A stretch of 45,477 nucleotides of DNA from a bacterium. GTDB taxonomy: Bacteria; Aerophobota; Aerophobia; Aerophobales; AE-B3A. Positions 9,272 through 41,814 of this stretch are shown piece after piece. The stretch is taken from NCBI GenBank assembly GCA_046760365.1, contig JBHIEA010000001.1, positions 1 through 45,477 of the forward strand. The letters are read 5' to 3'. The translations under genes were made by a program, and so were the position numbers. The notes under the pieces are model-generated. The model was given only the letters and a program-made list of their open reading frames with translations. It had not been told where the DNA came from and did no database searches. The stretch's first letter is position 1. Each line of letters begins with the position of its first letter.

Positions 9272-10146
9272 TGAATAGAAAGATTACCAGAAAGATGAAA
9301 AGAGTGCTTTTGTACCTTATGGTAGTCATTATTTTAATATCGGTGCTGATACCTTTTGTTTGGATGGTCTCTGGTTCTTTTAAGACCAGGCTGGAGATTC
9401 AGGCATCAGACATTAAAATAGCGGGCAAGGAACCTAGCTGGATACCCCGCAGGCCTACTCTGAATAATTATAAGATGGTAAACAAGGAGGTTAAGATACT
9501 GAATTACTTTAGAAATAGCATAATCATAAGTCCTGGAACCATGTTCTTTTGTGTTCTTATCGCCGTTCTCGCTGGCTACTCTGTCTCTCGTTTTGCTTTT
9601 CCCGGTAGAACTGTCTATACCGTTTCGATATTGTCCACTCAGATGTTTCCCGGAATCCTTTTCCTCATTCCTTACTTTGTGATGTTTGTCTGGATAAGAA
9701 AAAACATAGGCCTTCCCATGAGAAATACTTATTGGGGGATGATTTTTACCTATACCTCTTTTGCTCTTCCCTTTTCTATCTGGATTCTGAGAGGTTACTT
9801 TAATACCATTCCGAGAGAGATAGATGAACAGGCCCAGATTGATGGATGTACTCGGCTAGGAGCTCTTTTTAGGGTCATAATTCCCTTAGCCAAGCCGGGC
9901 ATCACCGCAGTGGGCATATACGGGTTTATTATGGCCTGGAATGAGATATTGTTTGCCACTGTACTTACAGGAAAGGACACGACGACGGTGGCTATCGGCC
10001 TTCTGAAATATATCACCGCGCAAGAGGCCCGCTGGGGTGGAATGATGGCTGCTTGTGTATTGGTGAGTCTTCCAGTACTGGCATTTTTTACAGTATTGCA
10101 GAGGCAATTTGTTCGTGGCTTAGTTACTGGGGCGACAAAGGGGTAA
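9271..10146 (+). CDS. sugar ABC transporter permease (MalG-like)
   Basis: Multi-TM protein with the EAA loop EQAQIDGCTRLGALFRVIIPLAKPG. The GTG start overlaps the upstream stop by 1 nt. Confidence 0.9.
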   Translation: MNRKITRKMKRVLLYLMVVIILISVLIPFVWMVSGSFKTRLEIQASDIKIAGKEPSWIPRRPTLNNYKMVNKEVKILNYFRNSIIISPGTMFFCVLIAVLAGYSVSRFAFPGRTVYTVSILSTQMFPGILFLIPYFVMFVWIRKNIGLPMRNTYWGMIFTYTSFALPFSIWILRGYFNTIPREIDEQAQIDGCTRLGALFRVIIPLAKPGITAVGIYGFIMAWNEILFATVLTGKDTTTVAIGLLKYITAQEARWGGMMAACVLVSLPVLAFFTVLQRQFVRGLVTGATKG

Positions 10147-18403: not shown

Positions 18404-18431
18404 TTGACAAAATACAGGTTGTGTATAGAAT
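18404..18431 (+). promoter_or_regulatory. sigma-70-like promoter of the glycine riboswitch transcript
   Basis: TTGACA at 18404-18409, a 16-nt spacer, then TAGAAT at 18426-18431. Confidence 0.45.
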
Positions 18432-18467
18432 TCAGAATGGTTGAAAATATGGTATGGCTAGAGGGCG

Positions 18468-18651
18468 ATTAAGGGAGAGACCAGAAACATCTGGCGCCGA
18501 AGGGGCAATCCTTAACTCCAAACTCTCAGGCAAAAGGACCTTAATTAGCTAGCTCTCTGGAGAAGCTTTCCTTAAATCTGATCAAGGAAAGAACCGAAGG
18601 GGCAGTCTTGCCTTGGTAGGCAAGACGAATCTCTCAGGTAAAAGGACAGAG
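18468..18651 (+). promoter_or_regulatory. tandem glycine riboswitch (two aptamers)
   Basis: Aptamer 1 has P1 ATTAAGG/CCTTAAT, GGAGAG, CTGGCGCCGAAGGGGCAA and CTCTCAGGCAAAAGGAC. Aptamer 2 has CTCTGGAGAA, ACCGAAGGGGCA and CTCTCAGGTAAAAGGACAGAG. These are the canonical conserved cores of the gcvT glycine riboswitch class. Confidence 0.92.
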
Positions 18652-18689
18652 GGCACGACACCCATCAAGTTGTCGTGTCCTCTTTTTTA
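18648..18689 (+). terminator. intrinsic terminator (expression platform of the glycine riboswitch)
   Basis: AGAGGGCACGACA (18648-18660) pairs with TGTCGTGTCCTCT (18671-18683), giving 13 bp with one G-U, then TTTTTT. Its 5' arm overlaps the 3' strand of aptamer-2 P1 (CAGAG). Confidence 0.85.
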
Positions 18690-18717
18690 TTGAGGATGAA
18701 GATACAGAGATTACTAG

Positions 18718-18930
18718 AGGGATAGGAATTTCAATAATTTCTCTGAATTGTTATCAAGTAAACCTCAGCAGACCAGATATCAGAAAAAAGAGGGGAGGCC
18801 TGCTCTCTCATGCCCTGAGCGGACGGGCAGAGTGCCGAAAGGCAGCGAGAGTCGGCTTTGCCGATCGAGCCGTCGAGGGGGGCATTCCGAAGGAATCGGC
18901 GAAGCCCTATTTCCCCCTCGAGTATCTTGT
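18718..18930 (+). repeat. unclassified ~200-nt intergenic repeat / candidate structured RNA, copy 1 (213 nt)
   Basis: Hand-aligned to 41621-41814 with about a dozen substitutions over ~186 alignable positions plus indels of 22, 4 and 1 nt. It contains hairpins AATAATT/AATTGTT, TGCC-GAAA-GGCA, TCGGC-TTT-GCCGA and ATTCC-GAA-GGAAT, and an 8-bp helix CGAGGGGG/CCCCCTCG. Confidence 0.85.
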
Positions 18931-18945
18931 GAGGGAGGGGCACCA

Positions 18946-20139
18946 ATGCAAATTGCAAGAAGAATGGGAAGACTAGGGACTGAAACTGCATTTGAAGTTT
19001 TGGCACAGGTAAATAGGCTCAAAGCAGAAGGCCAAGATATTATAAGTTTTGCTTTAGGAGAGCCTGATTTTGATACCCCTACGAATATTAAAGATGCAGC
19101 AATGAAGGCAATTACTGATGGTTATACTCATTACAGTCCCTCGGCTGGAATCCTTCCTTTGAGAGAGTCGATTGCGCACTACATTTCTGATACCAGAGGC
19201 ATGGGGGTGGAACCTGATGAGGTAGTGGTTACTCCCGGGGCAAAACCAATAATTTTTGATAGCATCCTTTCCTGTGTTAATGAAGGGGATGAGGTGATAT
19301 ATCCCAACCCGGGATTTCCCATCTATGAATCGGTTATAGACTTCTTAGGGGCAAAACCAGTTCCTCTTCCCCTTTTGGAAGAGAAAAACTTCAGTTTTGA
19401 TCCAGAGGATCTCAGGAGGAGAATAAGCCCCAGAACGAGGATGATCATTCTCAATTCTCCCCACAATCCCACCGGTGGCATCTTAAGTCAGGATGATCTG
19501 GAAACTATTGCTGAAATAGCTATGAAAAATGATCTGTGGATTTTGTCTGACGAGGTCTACTCTAAGATTATCTATGACGGGAAGTTTCAAAGTATCATTT
19601 CTATCCCGGGGATGAAGGAGAGAACGATTCTGGTGGATGGTTTTTCTAAGACTTATGCTATGACTGGCTGGCGATTGGGATTTGGCATAATGAAGAAGGA
19701 GTTGGCCGTAGATATTGCCAGAATAGAGACCAACGTTGATTCCTGTACGGCAACTTTTACCCAGTATGCGGGAATAGAGGCCCTGAAAGGTCCGCAGGAT
19801 GAATCTTCAGCCATGATAGCTGAATTTCAGAGAAGGCGAGATCTCATCTATGAGGAATTGAATGACATCGAGGGAATAAAGTGTCTGAAGCCGAAAGGAG
19901 CTTTTTACATATACCCAAATGTAACCGAGGCTTGCCGGAATCTAGATTTGGGTGACTCAAAGGAGCTTCAACAATATCTATTACACCGCGCAAAGGTAGC
20001 GGTATTGGCAAGAAGCTGTTTTGGCAGGCGAAACGAAGGGGAGAAAGAGGAATATATCAGATTGTCTTATGCGACTTCCAGAAAAAACATAATCGAAGGA
20101 GTAAAAAAAATTAAAAAAGCTATTGAATCTAAGTCTTAG
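18946..20139 (+). CDS. class-I PLP aminotransferase (aspartate/alanine aminotransferase type)
   Basis: 398 aa starting MQIARRMGRLGTETAFEV. Motifs are GEPDFDTP, NSPHNPTG and the PLP-lysine motif SKTYAMTGWRLGF. The SD GAGGGAGGGG lies 6 nt upstream. The longer ORF-track start (18748) runs through the non-coding repeat. Confidence 0.9.
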   Translation: MQIARRMGRLGTETAFEVLAQVNRLKAEGQDIISFALGEPDFDTPTNIKDAAMKAITDGYTHYSPSAGILPLRESIAHYISDTRGMGVEPDEVVVTPGAKPIIFDSILSCVNEGDEVIYPNPGFPIYESVIDFLGAKPVPLPLLEEKNFSFDPEDLRRRISPRTRMIILNSPHNPTGGILSQDDLETIAEIAMKNDLWILSDEVYSKIIYDGKFQSIISIPGMKERTILVDGFSKTYAMTGWRLGFGIMKKELAVDIARIETNVDSCTATFTQYAGIEALKGPQDESSAMIAEFQRRRDLIYEELNDIEGIKCLKPKGAFYIYPNVTEACRNLDLGDSKELQQYLLHRAKVAVLARSCFGRRNEGEKEEYIRLSYATSRKNIIEGVKKIKKAIESKS

Positions 20140-20174: not shown

Positions 20175-23100
20175 ATGGAAAAGAGACAGTTTTCATCAAA
20201 GGAAGCCTCCTCAGGAAAACGCGATCCGGCTTACTCAAATTTTCTCTTGGAGGAAAATCTCTCTGAGGTAGACCCTGATACGGACCTTATCATCGGTTTT
20301 GAGGAAGACCGGCAAGCCAAAAAGCTTATCCTCATTCCTTCCGAAAGCATCTGCCCCAAAGCTGTCCGCCAGGCCCTGGGCTCGGTCTTCACTAGCCTCT
20401 ATGCGGAAGGATATCCCCCCTTAAGAATGACCAGGGACGAAGAATCTCTGTTATTAGATTTCAAGGATCAGCTTGCCCACTGCCGACGCTATGCCGATAG
20501 ACGATTTTACAAAGGAGGTGAGTACGCCAATTTTGTTGAAGCTTTAGCCCAGAGGCGGGCCGCCCAATGCTTTGCTACCGATAACAGTCCCAATGCTCCC
20601 CTAAAGGTTGGGGCTGATCAAATATTTGTCAATGTACAACCTCTCTCCGGAGCAGCGGCTAATAACTCTGTGTATGAGGCTTTTGTTGAACCTGGTGATA
20701 CGGTTATGGGTATGGCTTTAGCCCATGGAGGCCATCTAACCCACGGCAGTGAGTTCAATCGATCCGGCAAGCGCTATCATATCGTTTCCTATGGAGTTAG
20801 TGAAGAAACCGGCAGATTAGATTATGAGGTGATCAAAAGGCTGGCCATCGAGCATAAACCAAAAATGATCATTGCCGGCTATACCTCCTATCCCTGGGCC
20901 CCTGACTGGCAGAAGTTCAGAGAGATTGCTGACAGTGTGGGAGCTATACTCTTCGCTGATATTGCTCATCCCGCGGGACTGGTGATTGCGGGGCAATATC
21001 CAAGTCCAGTTGGTTATGCTGACGTCATTACCTTAACCACTCATAAAACGCTCTGTGGTCCCCGTGGTGCAGTTATTTTGACTACCGATGAGGAAAAGGC
21101 CCAAAGAATAGACAATGCCGTCTTTCCTGGCGAGCAGGGGGGGCCTCACGTTAATAAGTTTGCCGCTATGGCGGTAGCTTTTAAGATTGCCCAAACAAAA
21201 AAGTTCAAAAAACTTCAAGAAAAAATTGTAGAAAATGCGCAGGTTCTGGTCTCTTCTCTTAAGAGGCGAGGCTTAGAGATAGCCTATGGAGGGACAAATA
21301 CTCACCTTTTGGTAATCGATCTAAGGGCTGTTAAAGCCAGGACGGGCTTTCCTCTAAAGGGTGAAATAGCTGCTCGCATCCTGGATCTTTGCGGCCTGGT
21401 GGTTAATAAGAACACTATTCCTGGTGATGAGACAGCCGCCGAGGCCAGCGGTGTCCGTCTGGGAACCCCCTGGATTACTCAGCGAGGACTAGGGAAAAAG
21501 GAGATAAAGAAGTTAGCCGAACTTATTCACCGGGTTATCACCAGGATTCAGCCTTTTAGCTACACAGGGCTGAAAGGGGATCTACCCCGAGGAAAGATAG
21601 ATTTAGAGACTCTTGAAGAAGTAAGACAGGAAGTAGCGGAACTGACCCAGACAGCCAAGGCTGAGACTTCCACCCATGAGCGAGCGGCTAAGCTTGGGTA
21701 TCCCCATTATGATGTTCCCGCAAAGCCTTCGGTAAAAAAGACCAGCTTACTTACGCAGCACCGGAAGCTGGGGGGGAAAATCGTCGAAAATAACGGTTGG
21801 GAAATGCCCATTCATTATGAAAATTTTACCGAAGAACTTAAAGCCGCCCGGATGACAGCGGTCATTTTCGACCTCGGCGACATGGGACTACTGAAGGTAA
21901 GTGGAGAAAGGGCCAAGCCCTTTCTCCAAGGGGTGTCTACCAAAAATCTAGCCGAGCTTAAGCCGGGAGAGTTCCTGCGTTCTTTTCTTCTGGACTCACA
22001 AGCTCAACTCATCGACGAGGTTTCTATTCTCTATTTAAATTGTGATAATAGTGGTAGAGACCATTATTTGGTAGTGACCAATCCGTCCCAGACTGAAAAG
22101 GTAAAGTCGTGGCTGCGGGGACTTTCCGACGGATATATTACTTTCGACCCCGATGATATATTTGCCAAAATTGAAGGACCAGCAGTAGTGGAGGACTTAG
22201 GAGAGACTGTTGAAAAAGGGTCACGCAGGATGGGAATAGCTTTGTACGGACCAAATTCTTCCAAAATCCTCAGGAAAATAGACTCTTCTTTGGGGAATCT
22301 TAAGAAATTTAATTTCCGGCAAGCGAAGATCGGACAAATCCAAGCCATCATCTCCCGAACCGGCTATACCAAGGACTCCTTAGGATTTGAATTCTATATC
22401 CACCCAAACGACGCCATCAAGCTCTGGAATCTACTTTTAAGACAAGGAAGGGAGTTTGGCATTAGGCCAGCCGGGCTTTTGACCAGAAATCATTTGCGCT
22501 CAGAAGCAGGTCCGCCTTCCCATGAAGATCCTAAATTCAAAACTCCCGGGCTTTCTCTATATAAGGCTCACCCCTCTCATTTTCATCTTTCAAAGCCTTA
22601 TTTTATTGGACAAAAGACTATTGATAAAGCGCTAGGATCCTTGGTAGCGAAAGAGGAGTTTCAATATAAGGAAGAGAAAGGGAAGCTAAGACAAAGTCCT
22701 CTGTATGATGAGCATTTGAAACTAGGGGCTAAGTTTGTTAAGTTTACCGGTTGGAAGATGCCTGTTTGTTACACCAGTATTAATGAGGAGCACCGGGCAG
22801 TAAGAGAGACAGCCGGGCTTTTTGATGTAGCCCATATGGGAGTAATAGAAATTGCGGGTGAGCACGCTGCCAGTTTCCTGGATACCGTTTCTACTAACTA
22901 CGTGCGATGGTTAAAAGATGGGCAATCTCAGTACGCCTACCTTCTCGATCCTGATGGCAATATCCTGGATGACGTTATGATCTATCGCCGCCATTGCCAT
23001 CGATATATGATGGTGGTCAATGCCGTTAATGAGCCCAAGATCTGGGCCTGGCTACGCGCTGTCAACTCCAAAAAATTTCTCATAGATCGAGACCATCCCA

Positions 23101-23921
23101 ATAAAGAGATTGAAGGAAAAGCGGTTCTCAGGAATCTAAAAGAGGCCTCATCCGGAAGGGATCAAAAAGTTGATCTGGCTCTCCAGGGCCCTAGTTCACT
23201 CTCCATATTACAGAAATTGGCAAAAGAGAAAGAGCTGAAGGGAAAATTAGCCAGAATTAGGAAAAATGAATTCCTGGAGGTTGAGCTTTCCGGAATTGAG
23301 ATGATAATTTCCCGGAGCGGTTATACCGGCGAAGATGTTGGCTATGAGCTTTATCTACATCCTGAAAACGCTACTCTCATTTGGAACCTGCTTTTAAGAG
23401 AGGGCAAAGATTTTGGCATTAAACCCTCTGGTCTGGGGGCCCGAGATTCAACCAGGATTGAAGCTGGTCTACCCTTATACGGACATGAGCTGGCTGGCAA
23501 ATACGGTATTACTCCTACTGAGGCTGGTTATGGGGCATTTGTTAAACTTCACAAACCCTACTTTATCGGGAAAAAGCGCCTTTTGAAAAGGCAACAGAGG
23601 AAAATGGAGATTATTCGTTTCAAGATGAAATCTAAAGGTATCAGAATGGTAAAATCAGAAGATCCCATCGTTGATGAAAAAGGCCAATACATTGGGAGAG
23701 TTACCAGTTGTGCTTTGGTGGGTGGGATTCAGCTTGGACTGGCTTATGTGGATAAAGATTTCGCAGAGGAAGGAAGAAAAATCGGAATATTTATTCTTCC
23801 GCGAGGAGGAAAATTTCTTCCAGAGGTCCCTAAAGATGAACTGATCAGAGGAGATAGGGTACTTCTTCACGAAGAAGCTATAGTCTTAAGCCGCTTCCCT
23901 GAAAAAAACAGCAGGATCTAG
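20175..23921 (+). CDS. three-domain fusion: divergent serine hydroxymethyltransferase-like domain + truncated GcvT-like domain + complete GcvT (aminomethyltransferase) domain
   Basis: Residues ~40-500 are SHMT-fold (SES..YAEGYP, GGHLTHG, TTHKTLCGPRG). Residues ~523-815 are GcvT-like (GWEMPIHY, FDLGDMGLLKVSG). Residues ~841-1248 are a canonical GcvT (GWKMPVCY, FDVAHMGVIEIAG, C-terminal barrel). Internal repeats pair up as KPYFIGQKT/KPYFIGKKR and LWNLLLRQGREFGIRPAGL/IWNLLLREGKDFGIKPSGL. Confidence 0.88.
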   Translation: MEKRQFSSKEASSGKRDPAYSNFLLEENLSEVDPDTDLIIGFEEDRQAKKLILIPSESICPKAVRQALGSVFTSLYAEGYPPLRMTRDEESLLLDFKDQLAHCRRYADRRFYKGGEYANFVEALAQRRAAQCFATDNSPNAPLKVGADQIFVNVQPLSGAAANNSVYEAFVEPGDTVMGMALAHGGHLTHGSEFNRSGKRYHIVSYGVSEETGRLDYEVIKRLAIEHKPKMIIAGYTSYPWAPDWQKFREIADSVGAILFADIAHPAGLVIAGQYPSPVGYADVITLTTHKTLCGPRGAVILTTDEEKAQRIDNAVFPGEQGGPHVNKFAAMAVAFKIAQTKKFKKLQEKIVENAQVLVSSLKRRGLEIAYGGTNTHLLVIDLRAVKARTGFPLKGEIAARILDLCGLVVNKNTIPGDETAAEASGVRLGTPWITQRGLGKKEIKKLAELIHRVITRIQPFSYTGLKGDLPRGKIDLETLEEVRQEVAELTQTAKAETSTHERAAKLGYPHYDVPAKPSVKKTSLLTQHRKLGGKIVENNGWEMPIHYENFTEELKAARMTAVIFDLGDMGLLKVSGERAKPFLQGVSTKNLAELKPGEFLRSFLLDSQAQLIDEVSILYLNCDNSGRDHYLVVTNPSQTEKVKSWLRGLSDGYITFDPDDIFAKIEGPAVVEDLGETVEKGSRRMGIALYGPNSSKILRKIDSSLGNLKKFNFRQAKIGQIQAIISRTGYTKDSLGFEFYIHPNDAIKLWNLLLRQGREFGIRPAGLLTRNHLRSEAGPPSHEDPKFKTPGLSLYKAHPSHFHLSKPYFIGQKTIDKALGSLVAKEEFQYKEEKGKLRQSPLYDEHLKLGAKFVKFTGWKMPVCYTSINEEHRAVRETAGLFDVAHMGVIEIAGEHAASFLDTVSTNYVRWLKDGQSQYAYLLDPDGNILDDVMIYRRHCHRYMMVVNAVNEPKIWAWLRAVNSKKFLIDRDHPNKEIEGKAVLRNLKEASSGRDQKVDLALQGPSSLSILQKLAKEKELKGKLARIRKNEFLEVELSGIEMIISRSGYTGEDVGYELYLHPENATLIWNLLLREGKDFGIKPSGLGARDSTRIEAGLPLYGHELAGKYGITPTEAGYGAFVKLHKPYFIGKKRLLKRQQRKMEIIRFKMKSKGIRMVKSEDPIVDEKGQYIGRVTSCALVGGIQLGLAYVDKDFAEEGRKIGIFILPRGGKFLPEVPKDELIRGDRVLLHEEAIVLSRFPEKNSRI

Positions 23922-41577: not shown

Positions 41578-41620
41578 AATACGCGGGACAACACGGCTAT
41601 TATCGGCTGCGTCTATTTAA

Positions 41621-41814
41621 AGGTATCGGAATGTCAATAATTTCTATGAGTTGTTATGAAGTAAACCTCAGCAGACTAGATATCAGAAAGAAAAAAGAGG
41701 GGAGGCCTGCTCTCTCACGCCCTGAGCGAACGACCATCGGCTTTGCCGATGGAGCCGTCGAGGGGGAATTCCAAAGGAATCGGCGAAGCCCTATTTCCCC
41801 CTCGAGTATCTTGT
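41621..41814 (+). repeat. unclassified ~200-nt intergenic repeat / candidate structured RNA, copy 2 (194 nt)
   Basis: Same orientation as 18718-18930 and near-identical to it. It lacks the 22-nt GAAA hairpin segment and instead has a longer CCATCGGC-TTT-GCCGATGG stem. Confidence 0.85.

Follow-up and report, generated by a model that had tools for sequence, protein, structure and literature searches.

A repeat in the leader of a glycine-riboswitch operon

The 45,477-nucleotide (nt) stretch of contig JBHIEA010000001.1 (assembly GCA_046760365.1, positions 1–45,477; hereafter, the window) contains a gcv operon whose first gene encodes an aminotransferase. This gene is preceded by a tandem glycine riboswitch (Rfam RF00504/RF03166) with a promoter, TTGACA-16-TAGAAT, at 18404–18431 and an intrinsic terminator (stem 18649–18682, followed by a T-run). 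The subject of this study is a non-coding element lodged between the terminator and the Shine–Dalgarno (SD) sequence of the aminotransferase gene, which had first been noticed from the sequence alone (hereafter, the original prediction). As predicted, the element begins 29 nt beyond the terminator; it ends 16 nt, rather than 15 nt, before the ATG. Its placement within the glycine-controlled leader was also upheld, as no promoter-like or terminator-like site was found inside the element, and a promoter or terminator carried by it was rejected. The window is the whole of a contig from a metagenome-assembled genome. Its aminotransferase shares 88% identity with the counterpart in Ca. Aerophobetes bacterium Ae_b3b and ~71% with Atribacterota proteins; judged from its sequence, the host is Aerophobetes-like.

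The element occurs twice in the window, on the same strand (Table 1). Alignment of the two copies within refined limits yielded 175 matches and 14 mismatches (92.6% identity) with gap runs of 4, 22 and 1 nt, in agreement with the direct repeat with about a dozen substitutions that had been recognized by hand. The outer limits of the alignments were 18714/18718–18929/30 for copy 1 and 41618/41621–41813/14 for copy 2, and those of copy 1 were set by an empty orthologous site (locus L062, below) together with the family alignment. No chance matches were obtained when 18- or 25-nt pieces of the element were compared with a shuffled window. Copy 2 follows the stop codon of an oppF-like ABC ATPase gene by 43 nt, and a gene for a sugar-type solute-binding protein begins 197 nt beyond it. 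The element had been called non-coding, and indeed no reading frame is common to both copies; open reading frames (ORFs) that run through copies use different frames, and a protein-coding reading was rejected. Likewise, a search of Rfam 15, at the gathering threshold and at E ≤ 10, matched only the glycine riboswitch and tRNAs, leaving the element without a known RNA family, as had been stated.

Orthologous sites with and without the element

The Ae_b3b locus (L062) has the same gcv gene order, tandem riboswitch and terminator, with a 46-nt spacer that lacks the element. Its leader reads ...cctcttttttattaaggatgaatatatctagagcacTAC/GGATGGAGGtagaccaATG (junction ...CACTAC/GGATGGAGGtagaccaATG, the slash marking the insertion point), and the window reads ...gagatTACTAG/AGGGATAGG...GAGTATCTTG/TGAGGGAGGggcaccaATG, with a right flank that begins TGAGGGAGG. 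In this comparison of a filled with an empty site, copy 1 is inserted without duplication, at the SD's 5′ edge. The arrangement of riboswitch and terminator is the same in L062, L063 and L065, and relatives at 78% identity (L065–L067) keep riboswitch, terminator and operon and lack the element.

Two further pairs were compared. In the second, the element is present in L013 and absent from L048 and L019 (GCCAATTTAC/AAAGATG). The empty allele has a 20-nt overlap of lspA with lgt; in L013 (10282–10451), the element replaces the last 8 lspA codons, exchanging YKDVSDSF for the element-encoded CSTGVPKISSGCY, and ends 4 nt before the lgt ATG, which breaks the overlap. In the third pair, L039 has the element and L044 does not (GCTAG/AGAAGAGG). 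Across all three pairs, target-site duplications do not exceed 1 nt, consistent with the original statement that there is none. A further intrusion was found at L005 (354–1505), where a pilX-like ORF (P0001, 383 amino acids) reads through a full copy that starts after about codon 4, with no in-frame start codon between the element and the transmembrane segment; judged from the reading frame, either the copy would be translated as a ~62-amino-acid insertion or the gene would be inactivated.

Separately, L063 (Ga0315547_1000005, 85% identity) was seen to carry another insert of ~90 nt (~9870–10000), containing gcttcgggactttgtccttcgcaatgacagg, in the same terminator-to-SD spacer, and a motif similar to gcttcgggactttgtccttcgcaatgacagg is also present upstream of its riboswitch promoter. 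Repeats appear to land recurrently in the spacer of the gcv leader.

Dispersal of the element

The 21-mer GGAATCGGCGAAGCCCTATTT, chosen as invariant among the four copies then known, is present in 56 JGI metagenome contigs. In total, 61 copies were collected, which clustering of the flanks assigned to about 37 different insertion sites, with the window and two other loci included. Among genome contigs (GTDB), a 22-mer from the 3′ end had a single match, L001, in a metagenome-assembled genome labelled as an uncultured Clostridia; this contig ends within a copy lying 13 nt upstream of ribBA. A six-frame peptide query of the protein collection also returned a single match, the pilX-like ORF of L005, the N terminus of which is a translated copy. 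Three Logan contigs with an aminotransferase identical to that of the window all begin at the last 29 nt of the element. Short-read assemblies break inside the element, with contigs that start or end within copies.

Other searches returned nothing. The 22-mer had no matches in the metagenomes because it spans a variable C-run; neither the 22-mer nor the 21-mer matched any viral contig; and blastn against plasmids and phages gave no match to the element. A profile search with nhmmer over 535 kb of related loci recovered no diverged copies, solo ends or autonomous element, and no description of such repeats was found in the literature on Aerophobetes genomes. As far as checked in Rfam, plasmids, phages and that literature, the element family is undescribed.

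A recent segmental duplication is ruled out by the many unrelated sites. The presence of multiple copies at unrelated loci, together with their absence from orthologous sites, identifies a mobile repeat rather than a leader RNA, and of this mobility we are highly confident. The novel structured RNA of the operon that the original prediction implied is contradicted by the ~37 unrelated sites, by the empty Ae_b3b leader and by copies that intrude into coding sequence, at the 3′ end of lspA and at the 5′ end of the pilX-like gene, findings of the sort that the original prediction had named as its own refutation. Together, these results indicate that the segment is probably a copy of a small, non-autonomous mobile DNA repeat of Aerophobetes-like marine-sediment bacteria and not a component of the glycine riboswitch.

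Conserved ends and a modular interior

Both termini are present in all copies: the 5′ end reads AGGTAT(C/A)GG, and at the 3′ end a hairpin is followed by (A/G)TATCTT(G/A), which one sub-lineage replaces with TATGTTC. The hairpin ends 8 nt upstream of the 3′ end, at which the last four nt are CTTG in copy 1 and CTTA, GTTC, TTTG or CTCG in other copies. Its helix, GC-rich and of 9–10 base pairs (bp) (TCGAGGGGGG / CCCCCCTCGA), encloses two mini-hairpins. Between the termini, the interior is modular across the family and ranges from almost nothing to >140 nt, giving element sizes of about 75–250 nt. Mini forms of ~75–100 nt (L020, L026, L047, L050 and L051) are hardly more than the hairpin with extended arms, with both ends kept. 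In long forms, the 5′ domain is AT-rich and is joined by an A-run plus GAGGGGAG and by an optional module of 30 nt between CTCGAGC and ATCGAGC. Long forms differ from one another through modules of 30, ~22 and ~60 nt; the middle region has two alternative alleles in the family. The original statement that terminal inverted repeats are absent needs qualification, as it holds only in that those of the long forms are an imperfect pair of 7–9 nt (AAGGTAT / ATATCTT). Mini forms are near-perfect palindromes with 17-nt arms (CAAGATACTCGAGGGGG...; L020 and L047), in which the arms are the hairpin stem itself.

Table 1 Positions of the element, its parts and its flanks in the window
Feature	Positions	Strand	Remarks
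Tandem glycine riboswitch (18458–18653) and intrinsic terminator (T-run up to 18688)	18458..18688	+	Context, outside the element
Left flank TTACTAG, target side	18711..18717	+	Empty ortholog here: CACTAC
Copy 1, long form, 212 nt	18718..18929	+	Between riboswitch terminator and SD of the first gene; from alignment with copy 2
5′ terminus AGGGAT (family consensus AGGTAT) and AT-rich 5′ domain	18718..18790	+	No conserved or stable structure
Insert of 21–22 nt with hairpin TGCC-GAAA-GGCA	~18824..18844	+	Copy 1 only; not in copy 2 nor in any of 67 related loci
Hairpin TCGGC-TTT-GCCGA	18852..18864	+	In the optional ~30-nt module, missing from several members; complementary to 18895–18906
Conserved 3′ core	18873..18921	+	9-bp helix 18873–18881/18913–18921 around two mini-hairpins
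Core mini-hairpins ATTCC-GAA-GGAAT and GGC-GAA-GCC	18884–18896 and 18898–18906	+	
Invariant 21-mer GGAATCGGCGAAGCCCTATTT	18892–18912	+	Within the 3′ core
3′-terminal heptamer TATCTTG	18923..18929	+	Last 4 nt CTTG
SD (GAGGGAGGGG) and ATG (18946) of the aminotransferase, first gene of the gcv operon	18932..18948	+	Native right flank, intact
Copy 2, 193 nt	41621..41813	+	From alignment with copy 1

A second type of 5′ part, found in L008, L038, L044 and L052, is joined to a hairpin of a second repeat family. This REP-like family consists of GTAG followed by a short palindrome (GGTAGCCGCAMCCTWWAGGKTRCG) and was seen in 9 related contigs (L008:588–611, L013:300–323, L014:1145–1168, L035:14382–14405 and L052:3319–3342, and also L037, L038, L045 and L049), with no occurrence in the window; in some cases it directly adjoins or replaces the 5′ part of the element. 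In L021 (~936–1198, − strand), a nested insert of ~60 nt (ttatattggagggggaaacatcccccgccaacgctcgctgcctcccccagttcaaaacagg) in the middle module splits the profile match in two.

All four helices listed by the original prediction are present in both copies, the enclosing one being of 9 bp. The hairpins thus exist, and the description of the element as rich in helices is overstated: relative to shuffles, the whole copies have minimum-free-energy (MFE) z-scores of −0.45 and −1.35, scores for the core range from −1.2 to −2.9 on either strand, and the AT-rich 5′ half folds no better than shuffles, or even worse. Predicted folding energies of whole copies are indistinguishable from those of shuffled sequences, and RNAalifold on the family alignment returned no conserved structure in the 5′ domain. 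The GNRA hairpin, which had been read as an argument for transcription of the + strand, loses that role, as it is private to copy 1 (Table 1).

Covariation came down to two base pairs. Across 42 distinct sequences, the core helix is paired to 94.7% and has one covarying pair (C-G in 22, U-A in 17), a second, long-range helix has another (14 versus 7), and the alifold covariation term is −0.48 kcal/mol. In the alignment, these two pairs largely separate two sub-lineages and hence would represent few events. On the + strand, G.T in the core helix (23) outnumbers A.C/C.A (11), a weak hint at folding of the top strand. The MFE structure of 18850–18975 pairs GGCUUUGCCGAU with AUCGGCGAAGCC, and the C-run at 18913–18919 with the aminotransferase SD. 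This alternative fold, which competes with the core hairpin, requires the optional module and is no better than shuffles (z = −0.59); pairing of the CCCCCUC arm with the SD is only a hypothesis. Evidence for RNA structure is limited to the palindromic 3′ hairpin.

Insertion target and orientation

When 23 left flanks were aligned at the start of AGGTAT, position −3 was T in all 23, position −2 was T (16/23) or A (5/23) and position −1 was never T; further out, T or C was found at −4 (17/23), A at −6 (16/22) and T at −7 (13/22). The four nt left of AGGTAT follow the motif NT[T/A]N and include CTTG, GTTC, TTTG and CTAG, and empty sites read TTAC, CTAC or CTAG up to the junction. The longer flank TAnYTT(R) equals the 3′ end of the element, TATCTTG. 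In single cases this likeness extends over 8–12 nt, as in L006, with ATATTTTA on both sides, and in L059, with the flank TTCAATATGTTC. In 8 of 23 copies, about the chance level, the flank and the element end in the same base, and this lack of correlation indicates target mimicry rather than duplication; duplications of TA, TTR or TTA were rejected as the two sides are uncorrelated. Right flanks are purine-rich, although only mildly.

A co-oriented gene lies downstream at 30 of the 37 sites, and in 17 of these 30 its start codon is at most 28 nt from the 3′ end of the element, with a mode of 13–23 nt and the native SD in between. Between co-directional genes, 21 insertions are in sense orientation and one (L015) is antisense (two-sided binomial P of about 1e-5). 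Gaps on the left range from 2 to 450 nt, and a sign test of left versus right gaps was not significant (~19 sites), so that part of the proximity to start codons stems from short spacers. The neighbouring genes are unrelated housekeeping genes (gcv, ribBA, rplI, rpsF, acpP, lgt, argC, coaD and ABC transporters). No transposase was found beside the copies, in line with the original prediction, and the ORFs beside short copies are all housekeeping.

In the window, the + strand carries every ORF of >200 amino acids and each 5-kb bin has a positive GC skew, which indicates that its genes are very strongly co-oriented with replication in the host organism. As the + strand carries both the positive skew and all the genes, orientation relative to replication cannot be separated from orientation relative to transcription. 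The short stretch that separates the oppF-like stop codon from copy 2 (41594–41619) holds a small hairpin (CGGCTATTATCGGCTG) followed by CGTCTATTTA, directly adjoining both; by its sequence it resembles a weak terminator, the T-rich tail of which is the left-flank motif of copy 2.

A candidate mechanism of mobility

Junction anatomy invites comparison with two groups of HUH transposons. IS605-type elements have a transposon-adjacent motif (TAM) and a transposon-encoded motif (TEM), and gene-less derivatives, PATEs, exist (PMC10055086). Like PATEs (IS200/IS605, HUH Y1), the element is small, non-coding and multi-copy, makes no target duplication and conserves only its ends; it inserts directly 3′ of the TAM-like NT[T/A]N, and has a TEM-like CTTG at its own 3′ end and a subterminal hairpin near that end; its near-uniform sense orientation would suit strand-specific insertion. 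It differs from them in having no conserved or stable hairpin in its 5′ domain, in a flank mimicry of ~7–10 nt rather than 4–5 nt and in its short, imperfect terminal inverted repeat; no cognate TnpA was found for it in the fetched loci, and the likeness is one of junction anatomy.

The IS91 family inserts with no duplication; one end abuts a CTTG/GTTC target (T at position 2), and the other has a single subterminal palindrome with a GTTC/CTCG cleavage site next to it (PMC13181058). IS91, IS801 and IS1294 (HUH Y2, rolling circle; by analogy, also non-autonomous Helitrons) resemble the element in the lack of duplication, in a tetranucleotide target with T at position 2, in 3′ ends that read CTTG, GTTC, CTTA, TTTG or CTCG 8 nt after the hairpin, and in members that share the 3′ end and differ upstream. 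In contrast, the left flank of the element is mostly TTTR, CTAG or TTAC and not strictly CTTG/GTTC, and no Y2 transposase was found in the fetched loci. We know of no described bacterial miniature derivative of IS91.

By analogy, and with a little less than even confidence, we propose that the element is mobilized in trans by an HUH-type enzyme, following the logic of either IS200/IS605 ‘peel-and-paste’ or IS91 rolling-circle transposition. The transposase would work on one DNA strand, recognize the subterminal hairpin and cleave 3′ of a short motif, its asymmetric target being T-rich TAnYTTR followed by purines. This preference, combined with purifying selection elsewhere, would steer the element to the 5′ edge of ribosome-binding sites; target choice and selection against other insertions would suffice for the sense orientation and SD proximity, with RNA-level selection as the main rival on this point. 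In the window, the element would have landed in the 46-nt spacer between riboswitch terminator and SD, would be co-transcribed passively in the 5′ untranslated region (UTR) whenever glycine permits read-through and would place a GC-rich three-way hairpin in the mRNA, ~10 nt before the SD. The insert follows the terminator and precedes an SD that is intact, so that glycine control should persist: riboswitch control is probably left intact, and mRNA stability or translation would at most be modulated.

Several observations weigh against this proposal or the mobile-repeat reading behind it. Neither beside the copies nor elsewhere in the 535 kb of related loci was an autonomous partner or a transposase found, so that the enzyme class is deduced from junction anatomy only; neither a Y1 (TnpA) nor a Y2 HUH transposase was found in the fetched loci, the host genomes not having been searched as wholes. 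The 5′ end has no hairpin like that of the 3′ end, which is atypical for IS200/IS605, where similar subterminal hairpins occur at both ends, and the short terminal inverted repeat would also suit a DDE-type MITE (a miniature transposable element with inverted repeats). The filled and empty sites compared are only 88–96% identical, which leaves the junctions uncertain by about ±3 nt. All copies of the family were found by way of the 3′ 21-mer, which makes the constancy of the 3′ core partly circular. Copies number 2 in the 45 kb of the window and zero in 63 kb from three relatives. Last, sense orientation and SD proximity could stem from selection at the RNA level rather than from target choice.

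Repeats that have settled in transcribed regions are further close comparisons. In the pneumococcal trp leader, a BOX element sits between two T-box riboswitch motifs; it is co-transcribed, and regulation still works (PMC3049150), so that a riboswitch leader with a repeat inside it has a direct precedent. BOX of Streptococcus pneumoniae, as well as ERIC/IRU and Correia, are modular, hairpin-rich repeats of transcribed intergenic regions that can change mRNA stability or expression. None of the BOX, ERIC or Correia repeats has sequence similarity to the element; pneumococcal repeats are enriched between convergent genes, whereas the element is mostly upstream of co-oriented genes and almost always in sense; and the element, unlike Correia, has neither a duplication nor a TA target. 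REP/BIME are likewise extragenic palindromes in mosaics, mobilized by an HUH-type (RAYT) enzyme, and the REP-like GGTAGCCGCAMCCTWWAGGKTRCG adjoins some copies; the element differs in having no GTAG-plus-short-palindrome unit, in being much longer and in its distinct 5′ and 3′ termini.

Alternative explanations

By the example of BOX, ERIC and Correia, the element might be a domesticated mobile 5′-UTR module, kept because its RNA acts on the downstream gene as a 5′-proximal stabilizing stem–loop, as an RNase III/RNase E site or through its C-rich 3′ arm (CCCCCUC, anti-SD-like) competing for the SD. We consider this unlikely. The 21:1 sense bias and the sharp 13–23-nt mode to the start codon fit it, but strand-specific transposition predicts the sense bias equally. 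One insertion is kept at its locus across 9 samples with flanks 79–100% identical, and Correia, ERIC and BOX are precedents for altered mRNA fate (PMC3049150, PMC10969869); against this, the downstream genes are functionally unrelated and orthologous genes do without the element. The two compensatory pairs and the G.T excess in the + strand core helix point the same way, but folding energies do not differ from those of shuffles and the covariation reflects two sub-lineages and few events. The fold of 18850–18975 that pairs CCCCCUC with the SD requires a module that many copies lack.

An unlikely combination of mobility and function is a bacterial miniature of an HUH transposon (rolling-circle or peel-and-paste) whose target of ~7–10 nt mimics its own 3′ end and which homes strand-specifically to the 5′ edges of ribosome-binding sites, seeding many genes of an uncultured phylum, a riboswitch operon included, with a GC-rich SD/anti-SD-like hairpin that tunes translation or mRNA stability. 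In a more extreme variant, the transcript would be a guide-RNA scaffold with the adjacent SD/start region as guide.

A classical DDE-type MITE would be a deletion derivative of an insertion sequence with terminal inverted repeats, moved by cut-and-paste, with a target duplication that is very short or obscured. The near-perfect palindromes of the mini forms with their 17-nt arms, the AAGGTAT/ATATCTT pair at the ends of long forms and the contrast between conserved termini and a variable interior would all fit. This origin is nevertheless very unlikely, as the three filled/empty comparisons allow a duplication of at most 1 nt, the last bases of flank and element agree at about the chance level (8/23), and neither a strong orientation bias nor an asymmetric target that mimics one end is expected of a symmetric inverted-repeat transposon.

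Least plausible among the mobile-element readings, and most improbable, is a gene-less IS605-type PATE encoding an omega RNA scaffold, in which the guide is the 3′ flank (SD/start) and a TnpB/IscB-like protein acts in trans. The size of about 190–215 nt, a structured 3′ part whose end coincides exactly with the element boundary, the TAM-like left-flank motif and the sense orientation would agree with it, and PATEs often encode omega RNAs that are acted on in trans (PMC10055086). But neither TnpB nor IscB appeared in the fetched loci (the nuclease search was not genome-wide), Rfam gave no match to HEARO or other models associated with insertion sequences, the interior that would be the scaffold is dispensable in short forms, and a 3′-end motif resembling the target motif would allow self-targeting.

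We give almost no credence to a cis-regulatory RNA dedicated to the glycine-induced leader, whether ribozyme or second sensor: its position within the leader, the several local hairpins common to both window copies and the want of a known family to account for it speak for such an RNA, but neither Ae_b3b nor the relatives at 78% identity have it in their orthologous leaders, the empty site refuting it in practice, the same sequence lies upstream of unrelated genes and inside coding ends, the interior is dispensable and the GNRA hairpin is private to copy 1. An integron attC site was rejected because the ends do not fit RYYYAAC...GTTRRRY, and a group II intron domain V or a retron because there is no Rfam match and the element is too small.

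Other features of the window

Two tRNA genes are located at the contig start (1–132 in all; the first, 1–56, is cut by the contig end and the second is at 61–132), followed by leuS (265–2730). The second gene of the gcv operon (20175–23921) encodes a fusion of ~1230–1280 amino acids with SHMT and GCV_T (aminomethyltransferase) Pfam matches, and counterparts were found at L062:11230–14982, L063:11529–15365 and L065:11303–14998. Downstream of the fusion lie a transketolase gene and then gcvH, gcvPA and gcvPB; both the fusion and the gene order are kept in Aerophobetes-like and more distant relatives.

Implications

The long leader of this glycine-riboswitch operon consists of a riboswitch plus a transposon insertion and is not a new composite regulatory RNA, which removes a false lead for annotation. 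The element also accounts for the breaking of short-read assemblies of these genomes at gene starts. As a family, this undescribed repeat joins duplication-free insertion, a target that mimics its own 3′ end and a near-exclusive sense orientation upstream of ribosome-binding sites, a placement that offers a natural test of strand-specific transposition versus RNA-level selection in the settlement of small repeats.

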